Shown here piece after piece: positions 14,656-27,346 of a stretch of DNA of 64,000 nucleotides. The stretch lies in assembly GCF_041146345.1 (NCBI RefSeq), contig NW_027191407.1:372001-436000 (forward strand), read 5' to 3'. The translations under genes were made by a program, and so were the position numbers. This stretch comes from Neodothiora populina (lineage: Eukaryota). The notes under the pieces were generated by a model. It did no database searches, was not told the DNA's origin, and saw only the letters and a program-made list of their open reading frames with translations. Each line of letters opens with the position of its first letter. The first letter of the stretch is position 1.

Positions 14656-16167
14656 TCAAATCAAGCGGAAGGCACTTTTGAAGCGTCTCCTGAGCTCGGC
14701 ACCCATGGCGGCTCTGCTTTCCGCAGTCCTGGTCGCAGCATCCTTGTTCTCTGCAGCACGTCTGAGCAAGTAGTTGAGACACTCTTCCATGCTGCCCCAG
14801 GTAGTGCATTTGTAGGCACGAGGAATATCTACATTCTTCCCATTGCTAAGGGCCTGGTTGGCTTTACCTGCCATGATGAGTTCACAACTCACTTCGTCAG
14901 CCATTCCCTGCAGCTGAGCATACGCAAGTGGTACAAGACTGTCATTCTGAGCAGCCTGTTGGGCCCTGATGGATTGCGCTTTGCGAACCGAGTTGGCATT
15001 GTGCGTAGCTAGCACGAGGTTGATGTCGGCAAAGTCAAAGGCATGTGAGCCATGAAGAGGCTGCAGAAGACCAGTAAATTGTTTCTTGAGGAGTGCTTCT
15101 GCCAGCGCATCATAGGCCGCATGGGTACTACCAATGTCCGGCCAAATAATCGATCTAGGCTCCGAGGCCAAGTAGGCGCCGCGCACAAGCTTGACACCCA
15201 AAGTGAAGTCTTCGGTTTTTGCAAGACTAAGGTGCTTTGCGAGCGTAGCAGGTGTTGATTTCAAGTATGCTTGATACGTGCTGTAGACCACTGAGTGGCC
15301 GCGATTGTAGTCTTTCTGCAAGTTCAAACACCAGGAGTGGAACGTAGGCAGCGTCGTAGTCTCCTCTGCAGCAGGGAGAAGTGAGATTCGCTTGGCGGCT
15401 GCAGCGGTACATACTTCACGCATAGCATCATCCATAAGCGCACTTGGTGGCTTCTGTTGTTTGAGGAGTTGCAAAGCCTCTGGACCGAGACCGGACCATC
15501 TGAAGATGCTTGTCAGCACATGTCGAATACGACGATATGATAAGAGAGGTGCAACATACTTCAGGCCCACAAAATCTCCTGGGCTGGCCATGTCGATGGT
15601 CTGGAGAAGGCCATTTCGCCATATATCCACGTCCTTGGCAGTATCCGAGATTTTGGCATCTGCCAGCACTTCGAGAGCATACTCGAGAATCACACCGGAG
15701 TACCCGATTGATCGCATCTGCTGGACATTGCGCTGAATCTCAGCTTGTGAAGTGCCGCTGCAAAACTGCTTATAGAAGGTCTCACGAAGTATCAACTTGA
15801 GTAATGGATTCTTCTCAACACTGGTCACTGGAGAACTGGAGTCTACCATCGCTCTCAAAGTCTTGAGGCAGGTCTGTAGGAGTAGTGGTGATGATGATAC
15901 GCTCGTGATGAAGTACGTCCGAAGGACCTGAGCCAGTGGGAGACATGATAAAACCGGAGCTTGCGACGAAGCCACTGGCGAGACTACTGGAGATGCACTC
16001 GATGCTGGAGATCCTGGAGACGAATCCGACACCGCCCAGGTCGTGCGATCTGGCTTAGTGGTGTGGAGGCATCTGGTAGCGGCAAAAGAGGAGGAAGCAG
16101 TCAAGCTGGTGGTCACTCGCAAACCGCGAGTGATGCTTGAGATAGCAACAGTGTGGGGGAGCTTCAT
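14656..16167 (-). CDS. PUT1: Mitochondrial proline dehydrogenase (proline oxidase); one 60-nt intron at 15500-15559
   Basis: TFYKQFCSG, YSTYQAYLK, GVKLVRGAY, LATHN, AQLQGMAD and YLLRRAAEN motifs, plus an Arg/Ser/Thr-rich N-terminal presequence. Intron reads GTATGT..GCTGAC..CAG. Confidence 0.93.
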   Translation of the reverse strand: MKLPHTVAISSITRGLRVTTSLTASSSFAATRCLHTTKPDRTTWAVSDSSPGSPASSASPVVSPVASSQAPVLSCLPLAQVLRTYFITSVSSSPLLLQTCLKTLRAMVDSSSPVTSVEKNPLLKLILRETFYKQFCSGTSQAEIQRNVQQMRSIGYSGVILEYALEVLADAKISDTAKDVDIWRNGLLQTIDMASPGDFVGLKYVAPLLSYRRIRHVLTSIFRWSGLGPEALQLLKQQKPPSALMDDAMREVCTAAAAKRISLLPAAEETTTLPTFHSWCLNLQKDYNRGHSVVYSTYQAYLKSTPATLAKHLSLAKTEDFTLGVKLVRGAYLASEPRSIIWPDIGSTHAAYDALAEALLKKQFTGLLQPLHGSHAFDFADINLVLATHNANSVRKAQSIRAQQAAQNDSLVPLAYAQLQGMADEVSCELIMAGKANQALSNGKNVDIPRAYKCTTWGSMEECLNYLLRRAAENKDAATRTAESRAAMGAELRRRFKSAFRLI

Positions 16168-16400
16168 GACTGAATCGTATGCCGTCTGTGCACGATTCAG
16201 GTAGTCCCACCGTGTGCTATCGATGTCAAAGGCAGTGAAGAGGTGGAGAGATGACAGAAGGTTGATATAGATGAAGGGGGGATCTCAGAGTACCGTTTGG
16301 GACCGTATCTAACCGACTGCTAGACTGTTAGGCCTACTATCAAGGTATAACACCATCATTCCTTGAGCCTCTACTGACCTTCCCCTCACAACGAGGTTCC

Positions 16401-16471
16401 CTTATCGCCTATCGCCTATCGCATATCACTTATCGCCATTGCTGCACGAGTAATGAGCTATCGACGATAAG
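16401..16471 (-). promoter_or_regulatory. Array of GATA motifs upstream of proline dehydrogenase (candidate AreA/Nit2 sites)
   Basis: cttatcg cctatcg cctatcg catatca cttatcg gives five TATC cores at a 7-bp period, followed by ctatcgacgataag, about 235-300 bp upstream of the PUT1 ATG. Confidence 0.6.
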
Positions 16472-18011
16472 TGTTTGTCTCACTTTGCATTGCTGCCTGC
16501 GCTCGCCTTCCCCTTTCTGGCCAAAGTCCTTTCACTTCTGTTGTTCTCTCATCTCCTCTTACTCAGCAAAATTCCAGCATGTCCATCTCCACCCATCATC
16601 TCATCTATCTTCATGCATTATTCCTTTCTCCCATCTAGCCTTTAGTGAATCCATAGTCCGTCTACGACGTCGTCCCTACCCATGACAAGCCTCTGACGGC
16701 CCTGCTGGTCGGATGAAGGCATCTGCCGCTCACTTCTGTTCAGTGGCATCGATCAAAGCCAGCTGCATCAAGTCTATCAAAGGTATCATCTCACAGCGCC
16801 ATGAAATAGCAGCTAAGTGAAGCGACAGCCCTGGCTGTCGACTGTCTGCCAGTACTCCCTTATTGTCAGCTCTGGGTGCCTTTCTTCAACAGAAATGTCA
16901 CCCTTGCCTAGCAGCCCCTGATTGATAGTGTAGGCAGTGGTGTAAGTCGACGCCAGAACCGATGACGCAGCCCACCATTCCAGGTAAATCACTTGTGGAC
17001 AACTTCCGTCTGAACGAGGCGTTGAGTTGTTTACTGACATGTGCTTCAACAGACGCATGTTTTTTATCGATAGCGGTTGCGTTTGCTGCCTTGTCGGAAT
17101 GGTTTCTTACCATCAAGACGATCGAGCCATCACTTGATGCAACGCCTCCTTACATGACTTGTTCCATTCACCTTTGACGAATTCCCTTGAAAGGTCGTGG
17201 TATTGCTGTTATCTGTTGCGATCCTTCGCCATCGATCACGACTCAATCACCTTAGTGGAGCACTCATCGAAGGCCTATCCCTACAAGGACACTGAGATGG
17301 CTACACACATCACGGCACCTTCCCACCACACCTACTCGATCTCGAGTGGCTCAACTTTACCTCATACTGCCCCGCCGACGCCGCCGGACTCGTCAATCCA
17401 TTCCACCCTATCTTCAAGTTAAGTTTTTCATTCTCAACTCTTTTTCTCATGTTATGTATCCACCACTACACATGCCGTCGAAGTCCCGGCCGCAGTCCCG
17501 GTCTCGTACTCGGCATCGTTGTATCAGTCCCTTTTTCACTTCTGTCTCTTTTTCGCTCGCAAAGGTCCTCAACGTCCTCTTTTTTTCCATACCTACCCCT
17601 GAATCCTACTCAGGGGTTTTGTTTCTCGAGCTTCCAAGAACTCTCTACATATTCTGGCTCTTCTCTATGGCATTCTGAGAAGAAAGAACTTTTATCGGTG
17701 CTTTCACCTTCTTCCATACGTACTTTGGGCCCATGGCCCCATTCATGCTTACAACGCTCTCATGCGAAAAAGTTTATGATCTCTCCTTCCCTTTTCTTCC
17801 CGTTCCCGCTTTCGTCAAGATCCGTTTCCTATATCCATTCTGTCACTACTCGGTGTTATCTTTTCTTCAAGACGAGGTAAGTTGCTCTTGTGTATCTCCT
17901 CTTTCTATGGCCAGGAACTCCAGCTTTGCTTAGGCAGTAAGTACACTTAGTTTCTTCCCGATCTGTAAGTCTTCCATCCTCTTTCGTGCCGATTCAGTCT
18001 TGGACTTTGTA

Positions 18012-18235
18012 ACATCTTTCTCCGGCTTCTATGAAGGTCCGAGTACCAAGTCTTATGAAATGCTCAACACATCTCTCCAGCTTCTATGAAGGTCCGCGTA
18101 TCAAGTTCCCAAGAAGTGTTCAACACATCTTTCCGGCTTCGCTGAAGGTCCGAGTTCAAACTTCTTCCATCCATGGCATTTCAAGTTGCATGTGTTCCAA
18201 AGCCTGTCTTCCCGGCTTCTCTGAAGGTCCGGGTA
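18012..18235. repeat. Degenerate tandem repeat, 4 copies of a ~25-30 bp core (TCTTTCCGGCTTCTATGAAGGTCCG)
   Basis: GAAGGTCCG core at 18033, 18088, 18144 and 18223 (spacing 55, 56, 79). Confidence 0.85.
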
Positions 18236-18863
18236 TTGTGTTGATCTATCTGCACCGTGATTCCAATGAGGCTCCTCCTCGATTTTTGTTCAAATGCCAT
18301 TCCCTTCAACTTGCATTGTCACATTCCAGTGGTAAGTGATCAAGCTACTCTTTCTTTTCTATCTGCGATGACCTATGGTCAAGCTATCGGATTTCATTTG
18401 CTTTTATTTCAGCCGAATTAAACAGAAACTGCAAAAAATGGAAGCTAAGGCTCCTAAATAGAGGATATCTTTCCATCAATTTCACAAAAAGGTCAGGAAA
18501 ATTCAAAGAACACGAGAAAAATCTACCATACGCCGCTCTCAGTATCATCTCCTATAGACTTGGGCCTCTATGCTCTCGGATCTCTCATTTGCATCATTCA
18601 TCGTTCACGCCCGTCGGGGACCTTGACGAAAGCCAAGAAGCACTTTCTTGTGATGATTCATCATGATTGTCACGATCATCACTTATCTTTCCTTTAATCG
18701 TTGTGGGTGTTGACAACATTACCGTCATCCAAGAGACTACGACCATGTCATGGTTACAAGAGCCGATGAGCCGGGCAACGCTCCCGCAAACAACAAGACA
18801 TGTGAATTACGGGGGTAAGGTATATAAATGCTCCAAAGTACGATGTTATTGGTAAGATTCTGA

Positions 18864-18991
18864 GGGTGGCGCCGATGACTTACCCTGAAAGCGCCGTGGC
18901 TAATATGCAACTGTCTAGGCACCCTTCCAAAGAAGTTCCCAGAGACACTTGGTTCGATTCCCTGGCGCAGAAGTCGACATACCTTTTTTTT
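18864..18991 (+). ncRNA. tRNA-like Pol III unit, copy 1 (more degenerate)
   Basis: TATATAAA at 18821, A-box-like TGGCGCCGATGA, B box GGTTCGATTCC at 18951 and a T8 terminator. Collinear homology with copy 2. Confidence 0.5.
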
Positions 18992-19076
18992 GCTTCCCTA
19001 CTGCCCCTTTTTGATTCTTTCCTCGATCTAAAGCTATATATTCCGTGGGATTTGTCTCACTACCAGTAAGTTCCGC

Positions 19077-19200
19077 GGGTGGCGCCAATGGCTTACCTTG
19101 TGAGCGCGTGGCTGACATCAACTGTTCAGGCACTCACCTCGCAAGAAGGTCCTCAAGACGCTGGGTTCGAACCCCAGCGCAAACGTCGCCCAATATTTTT
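19077..19200 (+). ncRNA. tRNA-like Pol III unit, copy 2 (well structured)
   Basis: TATATATT at 19035 and A-box-like TGGCGCCAATGG. B box GGTTCGAACCC at 19164 sits in hairpin CGCTGGG-TTCGAAC-CCCAGCG. Terminal stem GGGTGGCG/CGTCGCCC, followed by a T5 terminator. Confidence 0.62.
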
Positions 19201-20090
19201 GTCCCTTACTCAAACTACCCCTTTTGCTTTTTGCTGTCCCACTTCGAATGCACACTTTTGATGAGCGGAAAGATGATAGTTGCCGTCGACATAGATCGGC
19301 TATGAGTTACTTCGAGCGCATATTCATTCTGCACGTCGACATGCATTGAGCTCCGAAAAATGACGTGCGAATGACCCATACGATGCCCGCTGAAGCCAAA
19401 CGACTCCACAAACAATCCCAGAGGGTGTGCAATATCGTGATCCGCAGACCAGGCGGAAAAATTGCTATCTTCCAAACCGCAGTGGAACCAATGCCAATGA
19501 ACGGGCTCTTTTGACTTCCCGAGACTCAGACTTGATCAGTATTCTTGAACGGGCCCAGAGGTCTACAGGCAGCTCACTTAAGATAGCGCAGTCTGGCTTG
19601 GAGCACATCGATCATTTACGTCGTGTTCTTGTTCAACAGCACATGGGAATGACAAGAGAAGCCAACACACTAAGCTGAAGTGCGCCACTCCAGTACTGGA
19701 CTACAGTCTCACATGGCAAATACATTCTTAGGCGGACACCAGTAACATCATGTATATGACAGGAAGTGGAAAAGGCCGTTGCACAGCTCTTCAAGATGCT
19801 ATCTACTCAATGGGATGTGCGATCGACTCACACCCTTGAGCCGTCGAGGCAACGCCTCTCGACCATCAAGGGAGACAGTGAGCCAATCTGGTTGGACGCC
19901 GGAACGTTCACCGTATTTCTCTCGCTCGAAGTTAGCGACATGTTTCCATGAAGCATCTGCCATGAGGCAAAAAGTTCGGTCTGATACCATGGAGGCGACG
20001 GTGAGGGTCAGAGCCTCTCCGCCACTGATAGAGACCTGACTTGCTGAGCTTTTGAGGTGGATTGTGTATGGTATGGTATCCGTCAACGAC

Positions 20091-20385
20091 TCGCTCCTAG
20101 CTCTTCCTCATAACCCCCTCCGCTCCCTAGCTCTTCCTCATACGAGGTGGATTCCTAGCTCTTCCCCACCCATCCCCCCAGATTTCACCCCTACTTCAAG
20201 CATAGCGAAATAAAGCGAGCGAGCGAGCGAGAGGATCAGTTGCGATAGCTAGACGTGGCGAAACAAAGCGAACGAAAGGGCGAACGAGAGGGTTGATTGC
20301 GAAGGCGAAGCATGGTGAACGAAAGCGAGCGAGAGCATTGTTGGCGAAGGACCAAGCGTGGCACGAGAAAGCGAGCGAGAAGGTT
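20091..20385. repeat. Two adjacent short repeat blocks: CCTAGCTCTTCC x3, then degenerate AAAGCGAGCGAGAG-containing units
   Basis: Three copies of cctagctcttcc at 20096-20165. Four or more units with (A)AAGCGARCGARAG at 20212-20382. Confidence 0.7.
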
Positions 20386-22940
20386 GGGGACTATGCGTTC
20401 GCACAAGATGTTAGCCTAATGTCTAGCTGAGGGGAGGGGAATACTCAGAGGCATAGGACGACCAGAGAGTTGCATTCCCGAAAAGCCAATGTCGTCTCCG
20501 TGAAGATCTGGTGACGTGCAAGACGCTCACTCAGAGAGGAAGGGCTTTGATCTAGCGTCAATCCCAAAGGGTTGCTATAGAGGCGAGAGACCTCTGCGAC
20601 GTTGATGATGATGACTAGGATGGCTCTGATGTCGTCAGTACACGACTTTGTGAGCGTGGAAGGCACTTACCATTGTTGTTGAGCACTCATACTGGTCAGC
20701 GGTGAAGATGATGCTCGCCGCGAGCATCATGGTAGACAGTCATTCTGCTGAGAATGGTTGTCGGTCATAGGTCTTCAAGCGGAAAGATAGGGAGTCGACG
20801 AATTAAGTCGCCGACAGCAGCAAGTGGCAGCGTTGGAAGCACTGTCGATGACTACAATTCCTGAAAGCAAACCACGTGAGCCGTGGCTCCATGAGCCGAC
20901 GAAAAGGACATCAACAGACTGAACGCATCAGAGAGATGAAAGCAGGAGAACTTACATGGGCAGTGACCGCTGCTCGACTGGAGAAGGCAGGCGAGTGTTG
21001 AGGAGACTTGCCAGACATGAGCCCCCTTCTGATCCTATATGGCCGAACCCGATCGTCGCGTATGTGTCGATGTTGTCCTCTAGGTTATGCCGGTGGTTAG
21101 TCATTGGTCATGAAGAAGTTCTGTCCAAAAACCCCAAGACACCACAGAAGCTGTGTCAGAGAAGATTAAATGAAGCTCCTGGCCAAGCTGCGATGGACAC
21201 AATGCAGCGAGGCTCACTTTGTTTTTCATACATGGTTATCATCATATCAGCTGTGGTGAAATTGGGACTCCGAACGTGAGGAGAGATTTAGCTGATTGTA
21301 AAATCCATGGAGTGCCAGTCCAAGGCCGGGTCAGTGATTGCGACAGGGAACTGTGAACGGATTAAAGACGCTTGTCCAGTGGCTTCATGTATTACATGAG
21401 CATGATCATTGATGAGGTCTCAGATCGATGATGTGTTATGAATACATTGCTGCTGCAGTGATCAAAGCCACTGATGAAGCTCATCGTATCTGTTCTCTGA
21501 CACAGAGATCATCATCGACTAAAGAGGTGGTGCAAGGAAGGGATGAGGAAAGGGGAGTGGAACAGCGAGAAGGGAGCAACTCAGCTGAATTCATTGCACA
21601 CAAAGACTTCTGAATGATGTTGATGCATCAAACTGAAACAAAACCACGTTAGCCATGGAGAAGGGTCATGACTTACCTCATGTTGTCCAAGAAACTGGCG
21701 AAGAGAAGAGGGCAGTACCGAAGTGGTGTTGATGAAGAAAGGAGCAGAGAAAGAAAGCTCACTTTCTTGATGCTTTTATACCCCAAGTGAGCAGTGATTC
21801 GCGGACTCACACTCTGCGGTGTTTGCAACACTTTGCTATACCTTGCCGAGTCCTCGGCGGCAATTCCATTTGACCCTCTGGATCATTGGGACTGATAGAC
21901 TAGACCAGAGGTGGCAGGTATCCCAGCCGCTGCACGGCAGGAGGGGTCCGCCTGCTCTGGGTTACGAACGACACAGGTCAACGCACTTGAGGGCAGAGAA
22001 GTGCACAACAGTGTACCTTAGGTTGCTTTCACAGGGTCACGGTGCAAGACCTGAAGGATCTACGCGATGTTCTCGAACTCGCCTAGATGTGATTCATCGT
22101 GTAGAAGTTCGAGTACTGCTATGAGTACTGGAATTGATCCTCCAAGCTCGTTCACTTATACACGTATTGGCTTGCGCTCCATGCAGACTCCGAAAGCGAA
22201 TTGGTAACATGTGCTACAAGTCGGTTGATCACCATCTTCTACTCCCTATGGATATGCAACATCATTGCAACAGGCTAGGGATCTACCTTCTTCGTAGAAG
22301 ATGGCATCGCCCTCCGCAGTTCGCAGTAGAGATACAGCCACCACGGAAGGGGTTTGTACTTTTACTCCTCTGCAAGCCAAAGCTATCTTCCAAAGACTGG
22401 ATGTCGGATTTTATCAAGACTGAAGCCCCCATGACACTCAAGAGGTACAGCTAGTATAGAAAATCCCGTGGAAGCTGGAAGGGGTGTCTTCGCAACTTCC
22501 TGTTGATATGTGCATAGTGTCAGGCTCAAAGTCCATGATGGAGTTCGTGAAGAAGTCCGGACGATAAGTCTATCAACAGGCTTGTTACCCTGCATGAGTT
22601 GCATTGTATGCATGATAAAGGAGAGGTGGAATGGGCTGTGTTCAAGGCTGATTTATGTACGCCTCACTTCCTGTGCGATCAAATCAGCGCCATCTCTTCA
22701 TCTTCAAGACACAGGTGAACATGGCTGGTCGAGGTGACCCTCGTACTGACCGCTTGCGGAAAGCCAGCATGTTGGGAGCGAGTGCAGGACCGGTCATAAT
22801 CGTCCCTAGTCTGCCACGCAAGCTATTCCAGACTTGAAGTTATGTGTTTGGGCTCAAGCGGTATAAACTGCTATGTCTTCTAGCCCTTGACTGAACCAAT
22901 CTTCTGGTTGTCTTCACGCGTTGGCTACCGGATCTATGGT

Positions 22941-22988
22941 CGAGGTCTATCTATGCGAGGTCTATCTATGCGAGGTCTATCTATTGCG
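22941..22988. repeat. 15-bp tandem repeat x3 (CGAGGTCTATCTATG)
   Basis: Directly visible in the sequence. Confidence 0.9.
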
Positions 22989-25900
22989 TGGCTCCTGATA
23001 CATGGACGCGAACATGAACCGTGAATAGGAAGCAAAGGACGGACGCAAGCAACATCCCAGCAAGAATGTCTCCCAATGGTGCAACATGAAGCATATGCGC
23101 TTGAAGCAACATGGTTATCAACATGGGAGTGGGGCTTCCAGAGATTGCCAGTCTGATACGGCCTATCTCAAGGAAACCCGTTTGATCTTTGGACACCATA
23201 ATAGGAGAAAAGAATTGACTTCCTTCTTCCTGCATGATGTGTCCTTGGTCAATTTGAACTTGAGGGAAGAAGAAGCTCTGGACAGGAAGGAGATTCTTAT
23301 GTAGCGTTTGAAACGACGCTAGTGGACATTCAGTCTATGGCAGAGCTCACTGCCCTGCTTGGATGCCTTGTTTGTTTATCTCCTGCTAGACGCTTGAAGA
23401 CTGCACGAAATGTGCAATGAGAGGAGTTTACTTGGGGATCGCTTCACTGGAAGAAGCGCTTTCACACTGGCATCTCTTCTACCACTAGATCCTCATGCCG
23501 ACCTGAAGTGAGCCTATGGTTGCTCCGATCTCTTGATGCCGCCATCCGAATGGCATCTCTTGGTCCACGTCAAGTGTGCGAGATCAGATCCATTCTGCAT
23601 TACTCCTCCCATTTTCGCACAGTACAGAGCTCGTGATCGATGGCTCTCGCCCAAACTACATTGCGAGTGGTATAACAGCGAAGACTAGTTGCAAGTGATG
23701 ACTCACAACTCACCGCGGGTACTTTTCAACCATTCGTCAAGATGGAGATCTTTATTGTCACCAAAGCTATCTCGGCCTTATTAGAAGTACCTTGGTCCGC
23801 CTCAATCTGATCCAGAGACCGCAAATCATAAGCACACGCGCGGTTTCGGAACCACTACTGAGTTGAAACTTCTACCAATCCTTCACCACTCATGGGATTC
23901 TCCGATCTCAAGATACCAGAGCTTTCTCTGTCATGAAGTGATGCCTAGTGTCATGAATTCGTCCATCATAGCTCATGTACCACGCTCTCTATTGGAATAC
24001 TGTCGATAGAGACAGTAGCGCTCCCCGTCTCATGTCATCCGGGCTTCTGCGAAAACTCCTGCGGATGATGAGATTGCCCTCAGACCTTGGGCAGCCAGGA
24101 GCCGTGCAAGGACGGACAGTAGTGCTAGACGTCGTCATGTCACAAGCATCGTGAGGTCAGAAGATGTCGTCCCGCCGTGATCAGCTCTCTCTGCACTCTC
24201 GTAGACGTGTGTAAGTCTTGCCCGACTACGATGTCAGACAGTCAAATTCGTGGCAATCGTTCAGTGCCACGTATTGTAGACGTATTTGAAGCGATACAGC
24301 AAGAGGACGAAGCAAGGCAGTAATTCCTGTTCGCTCAGGCCTAATTTCACACAAGCGGTTGCTGAGGCGCGGTTCCTAGGATGGTACGCGAGCTCTCATG
24401 CGCATGCTTCTGATATGAACGAAGTGAACACTACTTCTCAAGCTAGTCAACGTAATGGATTCGAGCAGGGCAGCTCAGCGTCGATGGCCGCGATGCTGAT
24501 TCCGTCTTTGACATGATAAGGATGAAATAGCGATGGCCACCGTCCAGTAACGACTTCTGGGCGGAAGAGACGTTCTCGTAGTGGTGTATACGCGGATGAG
24601 TTCCCTATCATGAGGACAATTAGTCTGAAGTGACCATCATGTTTAATACGCGTGAACAGGTGATTGGCATTGCTTGTGCTGCTCATGGCGTCCAAAATGG
24701 CCAAAATTTTAGCCAGTCGAAAGCATTACATGGAGTGTCAAGCAGCCTGATATGGCTACGCCGCTACGATGTCGCCAGACCTTGACGACCTCTATAGATC
24801 ATAGAGGTGATCTAATAGCTTGATGATCACTGTATCTCAGATATGCTCATACAACTGAAGTTGATGTGCAAAGATGGAATGTGGATCAGCAAAGTCACAA
24901 CTCGGCGTCAACAACAAGTACGATATGGAACTGCTACGCCAACAAGGATAGTCTACCATACACCTGGACAAGGACATCAATGGTGCTATACAATGTTCTT
25001 GCAGCAAGACGATACATGCTTTGCTATAGATCACTCTGTTACGTATACAGGTATCACTAGGGTCAGACAGCAGGTGCAATGAGTTCACAACAACAACTTG
25101 ACGGCACAACACCAACCACAGGACCATAAGTCACTTACAAGACAACAGAGCTACACGAAGACGACAAGTAGGCAGAAGGGGACATCGATAACATGCATTC
25201 TTCTTCAGCGTCCAGTCAAATGACCAGAGAACCAATGAAAAGATGTAAGAGTGGAAGTCAAAAATTATGCCTCCATGGCATGATCAATCATGCCATGCGG
25301 TAACTCCATCATCCCTACCCAAGGAAAGGAATGGACAGGGGAAAGGTGGGATGAGAGGAGTCACCGGGTGAGGAGCATCTTGAAAGCCTCCTCACCGAAA
25401 CGGTTGTGCATGAAGAAAGAAAGAAGAAAGAGAAGAAGAGAAGATAGCAAGCTTATATACCCCTGAGCAAACCGGGTCGCTTAGTCGTCGTGGGTGCCTA
25501 GTGGCACGGCAGGACGACCCATCGAGGTATAGTGCATGGATCATGATTGGCGTAGGGGCTAATGGCTGGAGGAGTCACACGCAGCAAGCTCACACATCAC
25601 CTAGAAGTGAGACACGGCACCGTGGTTTGTCTGGATACAAGATCCCCTCCTCGTCTTCTCTTCACTTTTCCTTTCTCCTATATCATGGCGATGTCAGGAT
25701 AGAGGATGTCACCAATCCCCTATCTGGCAGTCTTCCCACATTGCACAGCGTGGGCTCGAGTCTGCTAACGATGCCATCCTTTCAACTTGGTAGTCTCTGG
25801 CACAATTTTTGATGGCATACAATGCTCCCTTTTCATCGGTCTGCTGGTCGTATGACTGGTCACTGAAGAAGAGATTTGGTACTTGAAGAAGAGTGGTCTT

Positions 25901-27346
25901 TCGTGTCTTTGAGGCTGCTGTCAATCCATTTATGATAGAGAGCTCTTCTTTGAAGCTCCTCTTTGAGGGAAGCTGTATTGACCCTCACCACAGAAGAGCT
26001 ATGTTTGCTGGACATGCAATGAGCAAGTCCATGAGCGGAATCGGCTAGCCTCTATACGTATGATGGGCTATCATCACCCTTGCACGCGACCCCGAGCGTA
26101 CCTATTTTTCTTACTGTGTACTTCGTCACACTTATGGCGAATGAGTGGTTGATATATCGTAGCCGAGTCTGCATTACGATAAGCTACCATCTGCTCTCGT
26201 GGGAAGCTCAATACCGAGTCAAGGCTTGCATCCTGCCAGAACTCTGTCCAGTGATCTGAGATAACATCGTGATATATTCTTCGAGCCCAACGTCCAACCT
26301 CTAGTGGTAGACAGGAGTCTATCATGTCCCAGCACCCGCTATATGAACAAGTCGATGAAGCCCCTGTCCTCCCTTTACGTTGTCGCATGGAACAAGTGAG
26401 CAAAGAGCGACAATTTGAATCATGATTGAGATATAATGAAGGTCTACGTTGTTGGTCCAGTGCATCACGCTGACACTCTCTGGTCGTGACATTAATCTCA
26501 TTCATCATCCAGCACGGTCGCATGATCACGGAAGGATACACCACTGAAGGATATATCGCGACGACAAGAGTAACAGAATGCTCTCTAAACAGGAAAGTGA
26601 GGTCATATGCCCTTCACTGTCGAGGACACCAGGGCAACCCTGTCCATATCCAAGTGTATCGCTGGCCCACTGTCGCCGTGACCATCGATGGCGAGCGACC
26701 CTACGAATCCTGCGATTTGAACGGAATCGTGGACATGTTGCCACTCATGCTGTTACGCACCCGTGACGCCCAGTGAGTGAAATGGGCCAGACCGTTTCCC
26801 ACTTCGTCCAATGGCAAGGTTTGCAATGTGCAAGGGCAGCGGATCTCGCCTAATCAATTGATGACTGGCTAATTGTTGTTGCGAGAGCTACAGTATTTTA
26901 CTTACACTCTGTGCGGCGAAGCTCACTGGTAAGAAAACCCACGGTTCTGATGCTCTACTCTACAATCTAACTGCGAGATGCATACACGGTCACCATACAT
27001 CATACTGCACGGCGATGCTGCACGAGAGAGGGCGGAGGTCGAGGAATATCATACCAATCCCACCTTGATTGGGTAAAGCGTGTATGCGGGCTCGGCGGGG
27101 AATGGCAAGTAGGCAGCAACAGAAAAGCACCAGCCAAATGCAGACAACACTTTGGCCAAGGCGTCGGCCGTGTCTCTAAACGAGGAAAATTTGGGTTCAC
27201 AAATTACTGCATGCCGTCGCATTGTTGTGACTCAAAGCGAGTTCGGGGTTCATCTACACGTCTCCATCGTCCGCCCCTCTGCGATAACGGAGCAATTCGG
27301 CGTCGCGCGAGTGTATATACAAACATTGAGACATAATTATATTGAT

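Follow-up and report, generated by a model that had tools for sequence, protein, structure and literature searches.

RNA polymerase III (Pol III) loci that are isolated and lie outside the classical families are known from budding yeast, where RNA170 and ZOD1 have experimentally determined Pol III occupancy. Vault RNA genes, too, encode small Pol III transcripts and contain A and B boxes, and in Schizosaccharomyces pombe the Pol III genes have a TATA box near -30. For filamentous fungi, to our knowledge, the Pol III transcripts described hardly go beyond tRNA, 5S rRNA, U6, 7SL and RNase P RNA. Lineage-specific Pol III genes that combine A and B boxes with an upstream TATA-like box have been described in rodents as the 4.5SI and 4.5SH RNA genes (PMC10137851). 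In this study, we analysed a 64,000-nt stretch of contig NW_027191407.1 (positions 372,001 to 436,000; hereafter the window), a chromosomal stretch of an ascomycete fungus, probably a member of the Pezizomycotina, and focused on an intergenic tandem pair of homologous units with the putative anatomy of Pol III genes. The reading that we favour, with a confidence that is about evenly balanced, is that the pair is a tandemly duplicated Pol III transcription unit, most likely a lineage-specific small RNA gene. The pair matches no known RNA family, as judged by tRNA, 5S rRNA and other Rfam comparisons.

The two units are offset by 213 nt and share one order of elements: a TATA box, GTAAG, a body of 116 nt that begins at GGGTGGCG, an A-box-like motif (TGGCGCC(G/A)ATG across the two units), a B box, a T-run and the motif ACTRCCCCTTTT, which lies 3' of the terminator and makes a second T-run (Table 1). 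Measured from the start of the TATA box, GGGTGGCG is reached after 43 nt in copy 1 and 42 nt in copy 2, and the bodies are identical at 91 of 120 aligned columns (76%). An earlier note on this DNA had listed a TATA box 42-43 nt upstream, an A-box-like motif, a B box and a T-run for two units separated by 213 bp; all four elements are present in both units, in an order that is coherent as a Pol III layout, and our measurements returned the same spacings. The pair also exceeds what chance would give. The B-box pattern GGTTCGANNCC has three matches at two sites, both in the pair, against 0.46 expected, and only one of 100 shuffles gets to three matches. A 21-nt motif from the 5' part of the units has no third match when three mismatches are tolerated (0 expected), and an nhmmer profile of the two bodies recovered both copies (E 5e-38 and 4e-36), with the next match at E 0.46 and thus no third copy in the window.

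As a yardstick for promoter geometry, we used fungal 5S rRNA genes pulled from contigs of bacterial assemblies by a pattern scan. A TATA-like hexamer starts -30 to -28 from +1 in all four Pezizomycotina-type 5S loci (L041, L042, L044 and L045), and several T-runs follow the gene in each of the four, as they do in the pair. Applied to the pair, this TATA distance predicts starts at G18851 for copy 1 and A19065 for copy 2. From these predicted starts it is 13 and 12 nt, respectively, to GGGTGGCG and 15-16 nt to the A-like box, and pyrimidines immediately precede the starts, as in the 5S genes. A distance of 15-16 nt from start to A box is typical of tRNA genes. In each copy the TATA box sits about 30 nt upstream of the predicted start and the remaining elements follow in order, which is the arrangement of a type 2 Pol III unit with an upstream TATA box. 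From this anatomy we infer that the elements from TATA box to terminator would form one coherent Pol III unit in both copies.

Short low-coverage contigs carrying 5S genes of yeast or Pezizomycotina type (L020-L040, L042 and L044) were found in many named bacterial assemblies and are evidently eukaryotic contamination, while the contigs that hold L041 (80 kb) and L045 (117 kb) belong to metagenome-assembled genomes. The 80-kb contig also carries a bacterial-type tRNA-Leu with an encoded CCA, so that it may be chimeric; we dropped it as a source of fungal tRNA promoters because its tRNA-Leu is of bacterial type.

Table 1. Positions of the elements of the tandem pair in the window; starts and leaders are predicted.
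Feature	Position	Strand	Basis or remark
Copy 1 TATA box TATATAAA	18821-18828	+	starts 30 nt before predicted start
Copy 1 predicted start G18851 and 13-nt leader GGTAAGATTCTGA	18851-18863	+	predicted from TATA distance
Copy 1 body, 116 nt	18864-18979	+	alignment with copy 2
Copy 1 A-box-like motif TGGCGCCGATG	18867-18877	+	sequence
Copy 1 central hairpin (GTGGCTA...TAGGCAC), loop CAACTGT	18896-18922	+	shared with copy 2
Copy 1 B box GGTTCGATTCC, flanking T-stem broken	18951-18961	+	pattern match, pair comparison
Copy 1 terminator T8	18984-18991	+	backup T5 at 19008-19012
Copy 2 TATA box TATATATT	19035-19042	+	sequence, TATA distance
Copy 2 predicted start A19065 and 12-nt leader AGTAAGTTCCGC	19065-19076	+	predicted from TATA distance
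Copy 2 body, 116 nt	19077-19192	+	alignment, fold
Copy 2 terminal stem, 8 bp	19077-19084 with 19184-19191	+	fold
Copy 2 A-box-like motif TGGCGCCAATG	19080-19090	+	sequence
Copy 2 long interrupted hairpin	19090-19151	+	fold
Copy 2 central hairpin (GTGGCTG...CAGGCAC), loop CAACTGT	19108-19133	+	shared with copy 1
Copy 2 T-arm-like hairpin, 7 bp, 7-nt loop, contains B box	19159-19179	+	fold
Copy 2 B box GGTTCGAACCC	19164-19174	+	pattern match
Copy 2 terminator T5	19196-19200	+	backup T4 at 19222-19225, T5 at 19228-19232
Leader/internal complement, copy 1 (6 bp)	18851-18856 with 18879-18884	+	complementarity
Leader/internal complement, copy 2 (5 bp)	19066-19070 with 19092-19096	+	complementarity

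The layout resembles that of fungal tRNA genes with an upstream TATA box in its A-like box, its consensus B box within a hairpin with a 7-nt loop, its oligo-T terminator, its predicted start about 15 nt before the A box and its TATA box near -30. Unlike those genes, the pair has no cloverleaf, D arm or anticodon arm, and its A and B boxes are 84 nt apart. As an isolated Pol III-type unit outside the classical families, it is similar to RNA170 and ZOD1 as these are generally described; those loci have measured Pol III occupancy. The rodent 4.5SI and 4.5SH genes (PMC10137851) and vault RNA genes share several features with the pair: a length of roughly 100-150 nt, internal A and B boxes, a TATA-like element near -30, a T-run, a terminal stem formed by pairing of the ends, a local multi-copy layout and a narrow taxonomic range. 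The pair differs from them in having no sequence similarity to these RNAs and no Rfam match.

The comparisons with whole tRNAs were negative. ARAGORN, run with or without introns, found no tRNA gene in the window, and its selenocysteine (SeC) call at an 80% threshold was rejected as spurious. The Rfam tRNA model gave no match on the units at E values up to 10, and across the whole window no Rfam family matched at its gathering score, the outcome that the earlier note had anticipated. Its statement that copy 2 has no canonical acceptor stem or anticodon arm also agrees with these scans, as neither ARAGORN nor Rfam detected a cloverleaf. A tRNA has a 7-bp acceptor stem stacked directly on its T arm, together with D and anticodon arms; in copy 2, the T-like hairpin and the terminal stem have four unpaired bases between them, and the sequence offers neither a D arm nor an anticodon arm. 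The only tRNA-like Rfam signal on the single units, at E values up to 10, was a 17-nt match of the copy 2 T-arm hairpin to the T arm of mascRNA (11.4 bits, E 8.7). A T arm with a GTTCRANNC loop, which is the B box, is present as an intact hairpin in copy 2, and in copy 1 the box is intact and the stem is broken.

We also asked whether a tRNA interrupted by a single insertion could be recovered, by removing every segment of 6-90 nt from both units and rescanning the variants; none of the 18,590 single-deletion variants yields a tRNA. When a second deletion beside the T-arm was allowed, 752 of 320,715 variants were called tRNA. These calls are of mixed isotype, have mismatched stems and use other acceptor stems, and we consider them search noise. 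The earlier note's description of the units as tRNA-derived is therefore unproven. Its support consists of the B-box/T-arm hairpin and the imperfect A box, and the negative results from ARAGORN, Rfam and the deletions reduce it to the B box, which any TFIIIC-dependent gene would need.

Sub-threshold Rfam matches on the units span 8-19 bits. Among them, a match to the histone 3' stem-loop (Histone3) at 18843-18900 on the minus strand (19.2 bits against a threshold of 34, E 0.015), overlaps the 5' end of copy 1 and has a 14-nt insertion in its loop, and was judged spurious; sR23 and ctRNA_p42d were rejected as well. Likeness to the SRP Alu domain and to vault, Y, U6 and 7SL RNAs was dropped, as none had an Rfam match.

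Folding clearly distinguishes the two copies. The body of copy 2 folds at -49.8 kcal/mol (z -3.45), which two of 200 shuffles equal; with its leader included, z is -2.12 and five of 200 shuffles equal it. The copy 1 body, by comparison, has a z of 0.01, equalled by 96 of 200 shuffles, and the opposite strands fold unremarkably (z -1.51 and -0.37). The 8-bp terminal stem, long interrupted hairpin and 7-bp T-arm-like hairpin that had been drawn earlier for copy 2 were all reproduced, in keeping with the proposal that copy 2 is the structured copy. With a predicted fold in the best 1% of shuffles, copy 2 is the better functional candidate. Copy 1 keeps the promoter, the terminator and the central hairpin and has lost the rest of the fold, which suggests a diverged, possibly non-functional paralogue. 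The claim that copy 1 is decaying thus holds in part: its fold is gone, with 12 of 38 pairs lost, but it has kept its TATA box, B box (11 of 11 consensus positions), central hairpin and T8, the stronger of the two terminators.

Within the fold, this hairpin is conserved best, with eight of nine pairs retained, one compensatory change (G-C to A-T) and a conserved CAACTGT loop. Outside the body, the TATA block, GTAAG and the post-terminator motif (12/15) are conserved between the copies, whereas the spacer from TATA box to start is identical at only 4 of 21 ungapped columns (Fisher p 1e-6) or 14 of 30 gapped columns. This uneven conservation fits constraint on promoter, body and terminator. The substitutions between the copies comprise 13 transitions and 8 transversions and, having no one-directional excess of C-to-T or G-to-A, carry no sign of repeat-induced point mutation.

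The Rfam 5S model (RF00001, gathering score 38 bits) gave no match, at E values up to 10, on stretches of 601, 141 and 139 nt covering the units, although 24 of 26 control loci scored 43.8-91.6 bits with it (20 of 20 yeast-type and 4 of 6 further loci). Certain features nevertheless recall 5S rRNA: a length of about 116-120 nt, with the body at 116 nt, the three-helix junction of copy 2, a TATA box at about -30 and multiple T-runs. We therefore weighed, as a highly improbable explanation, that the units are a diverged 5S offshoot in which box C turned into a B box and which became independent of TFIIIA. Seven distinct yeast-type and three distinct Pezizomycotina-type sequences from the control loci served as the comparison set. 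Against the yeast-type sequences, the 5' half of copy 1 reached a global z of 3.38 (5 of 2000 shuffles) and a local z of 3.18 (34 of 2000), in a test that was chosen post hoc. The short blocks GAAAGC.CCGT and CAACTGT are placed as in yeast 5S rRNA, going by the Candida albicans 5S rRNA given in PMC4422620.

These resemblances did not extend further. The corresponding half of copy 2 has a z of 1.22 and the 3' halves of both copies are not similar to yeast-type 5S; 181 and 110 of 1000 shuffles do as well as the full-length units; and comparison with Pezizomycotina-type 5S, the kind expected in the host, gave z values from -1.75 to 0.67. In layout, the place of the 5S box C is taken in the pair by a B box, and a leader of 12-13 nt is predicted, whereas 5S starts at +1. 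Ancestry from 5S rRNA is thus unsupported by the full-length, copy 2, 3'-half and Pezizomycotina-type comparisons and, as its sole positive value was obtained post hoc, we retain it only at low probability.

The number and distribution of copies bear on whether the pair is part of a short interspersed nuclear element (SINE), which the earlier note had offered as a tRNA-derived SINE head. In the likely source assembly (28 Mb), one of 65,038 contigs matches positions 18500-19500 at 80% identity or more, and this is the locus itself; older dispersed copies below 80% are outside the reach of that threshold. No flanking direct repeat of at least 14 nt was found, and by eye no shorter target-site duplications were seen. 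The units share upstream promoter DNA and end in T-runs, with no A-rich tail or tail like that of a long interspersed nuclear element (LINE). Within these limits, the dispersed copies, target-site duplications and 3' tail of a SINE were not found, and the absence of another copy at or above 80% and of a LINE-type tail disfavours the SINE-head proposal. Among fungal SINEs, tRNA-related families such as AfuSINE2 exist in Aspergillus (PMC5063351), with a Pol III A/B-box head and partial tRNA likeness as in the pair. The pair differs from AfuSINE2-type elements in being a single locus of two adjacent copies that share promoter DNA, with no dispersed copies found, a terminator end, no 3' tail and no target-site duplications seen.

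Searches for relatives were negative. A pattern scan of metagenomes returned 19 loci, none with a B box, which were chance matches in mostly GC-rich, coding-looking DNA as judged by eye. A pattern scan of a contig collection gave three matches, all chance, and BLAST in the three assemblies with fungal-type 5S gave no match longer than 30 nt. In the literature, the element turned up neither under keywords nor by four 15-nt strings of its sequence, and term look-ups in PMC5640933 and PMC2377427 likewise gave nothing relevant.

Several observations weigh against our favoured reading of the pair as a duplicated Pol III small RNA gene. With no relative found in these scans, there is no evidence from cross-species conservation or covariation, and the sequencing runs listed (two of DNA, none of RNA) offer no transcript support. 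When the sequence of copy 1 is threaded onto the fold of copy 2, 26 of the 38 pairs survive and the remainder are broken, and the differences between the copies fall equally on paired (20 of 76) and unpaired (11 of 42) columns, at 26% each, so that the pair gives no evidence of selection on the fold as a whole. The uneven conservation described above may be partly a matter of indels and not of selection, since the 213-nt unit can be aligned throughout with gaps and the spacer is short. The A-box-like motif is imperfect, with one surplus base between GC and A relative to the consensus, and a T5 run, as in copy 2, is a weak terminator in some yeasts.

Some of these points would be expected under the main rival explanation, that the pair is a decaying relic, an element once tRNA-related or retroposed (a SINE-like insert or a tRNA pseudogene) that was locally duplicated and is now without RNA function; its boxes may still bind TFIIIC, or not. 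The copies are 24% diverged, the changes affect paired and unpaired positions alike, the fold of copy 1 is not significant, no relatives emerged from the scans, and the T-arm hairpin is the only part that resembles a known RNA. The existence of tRNA-related SINE families in Aspergillus, noted above (PMC5063351), also counts in its favour. This explanation is possible, although we consider it somewhat unlikely: no further copy was found in the window or, at 80% or more, in the likely source assembly, a tRNA is not recovered by deleting any one segment of 6-90 nt, and neither a tail nor flanking direct repeats of at least 14 nt mark the units as retroposed. In addition, the fold of copy 2 ranks in the best 1% of shuffles, and both copies retain a TATA box, a B box and terminators.

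The region also contains features that could be read without Pol III. On the plus strand, stop-free frames run over 18806-19069 (87 codons) and 19116-19349 (77 codons), and the 213-nt unit is a multiple of three (3 x 71). Among proteins of 47-153 residues, none is homologous to the conceptual 87-amino-acid product, and the local reading frames have no Pfam match, from which we conclude that the region is not coding. We noted in both copies a series resembling an intron, namely GTAAG, a branch-point-like CTAAT or CTGAC, and TAG or CAG 11-12 nt further on. The resulting spans, 18853-18915 (63 nt) and 19066-19127 (62 nt), are by eye of fungal-intron size, and the two substitutions by which the intron-like motifs differ are the ones that make up the "compensatory" change in the central hairpin. 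A start where the TATA box predicts it would leave a 5' exon of only 1-2 nt, and the intron-like spacing may be coincidence.

Taken together with further short tandem repeats nearby, the intron-like spacing, the unit length and the stop-free frame from 18806 could indicate a duplicated intergenic segment with no role in Pol III transcription, for example a regulatory repeat, or a promoter or leader for RNA polymerase II that includes a short intron; its B box and T-runs would in that case be fortuitous. We regard this as quite improbable. Use of the TATA box would leave the very short 5' exon, the conceptual protein has neither homologue nor Pfam domain, the T8 run and the two consensus B boxes are confined to the pair within 64 kb, and the strand-specific fold of copy 2 requires no coding explanation.

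Under the favoured reading of a duplicated Pol III unit, TFIIIC would bind the intragenic B box together with the imperfect A box, and TFIIIB would be placed on the TATA box. Counting from the first T or A of the TATA element, Pol III would then start about 29-30 nt further downstream, at the two positions predicted above, and would stop in the first T-run of each unit or in the backup T-runs (Table 1). The primary RNA would most likely measure about 135-150 nt, trimming of its ends would shorten it to about 116 nt, and that of copy 2 would fold as a three-way junction of terminal stem, long hairpin and T-arm-like hairpin.

The leader suggests a more specific, and in our view unlikely, version of this scheme. 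In both copies, the leader (G)GTAAG is complementary to an internal CTTAC(C), and this complementarity is conserved; RNAalifold instead predicts a GGGTGG/TTACC(C/T) pairing, with which it is in competition. (G)GTAAG resembles a 5' splice site and CTTAC(C) the 5' end of U1 snRNA. Copy 2, and perhaps copy 1, may accordingly represent an expressed, undescribed family of Pol III small RNAs with a hybrid promoter of TATA and A/B boxes, in which the central hairpin, with a 12-13-nt loop containing CAACUGU, would be the functional core and an unprocessed leader (G)GUAAG would pair with CUUAC(C). As these segments mirror a 5' splice site and the U1 5' end, they hint at a splice-site or U1 decoy or another regulatory role. 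The status of the pair as a small RNA family is unproven.

The pair sits in about 10 kb (about 16300-26000) without long or Pfam-recognisable open reading frames (ORFs). This stretch, which is unusually gene-poor for the window, has a proline dehydrogenase gene on one side and the nearest recognisable genes on the other. The proline dehydrogenase ORF (503 amino acids, 14656-16167, minus strand) matches Pfam Pro_dh at E 5.5e-46, and its closest protein-atlas clusters belong to Ascomycota. Further ORFs in the window are ordinary eukaryotic housekeeping genes, namely Ssu72, CBF/Mak21, an MFS transporter, an HLH factor and an Ofd1-type oxygenase. Short repeats also lie in the surroundings of the pair. 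Four direct repeats of about 52-56 nt, with 63-100% identity to a reference copy and spacings of 55, 56 and 79 nt, occupy 18002-18243, 600-800 nt upstream of the pair, and their period is no multiple of three. Downstream are AGCG-rich direct repeats (20198-20380; period 45-57 nt, three to four copies), 17-nt repeats at 20096-20170 and a perfect 15-nt tandem repeat in three copies at 22941-22985.

If verified, the RNA of this pair would be an addition to the short list of Pol III transcripts of filamentous fungi, and guide RNAs could be expressed in this group from the compact and defined Pol III promoter and terminator that the pair would supply.

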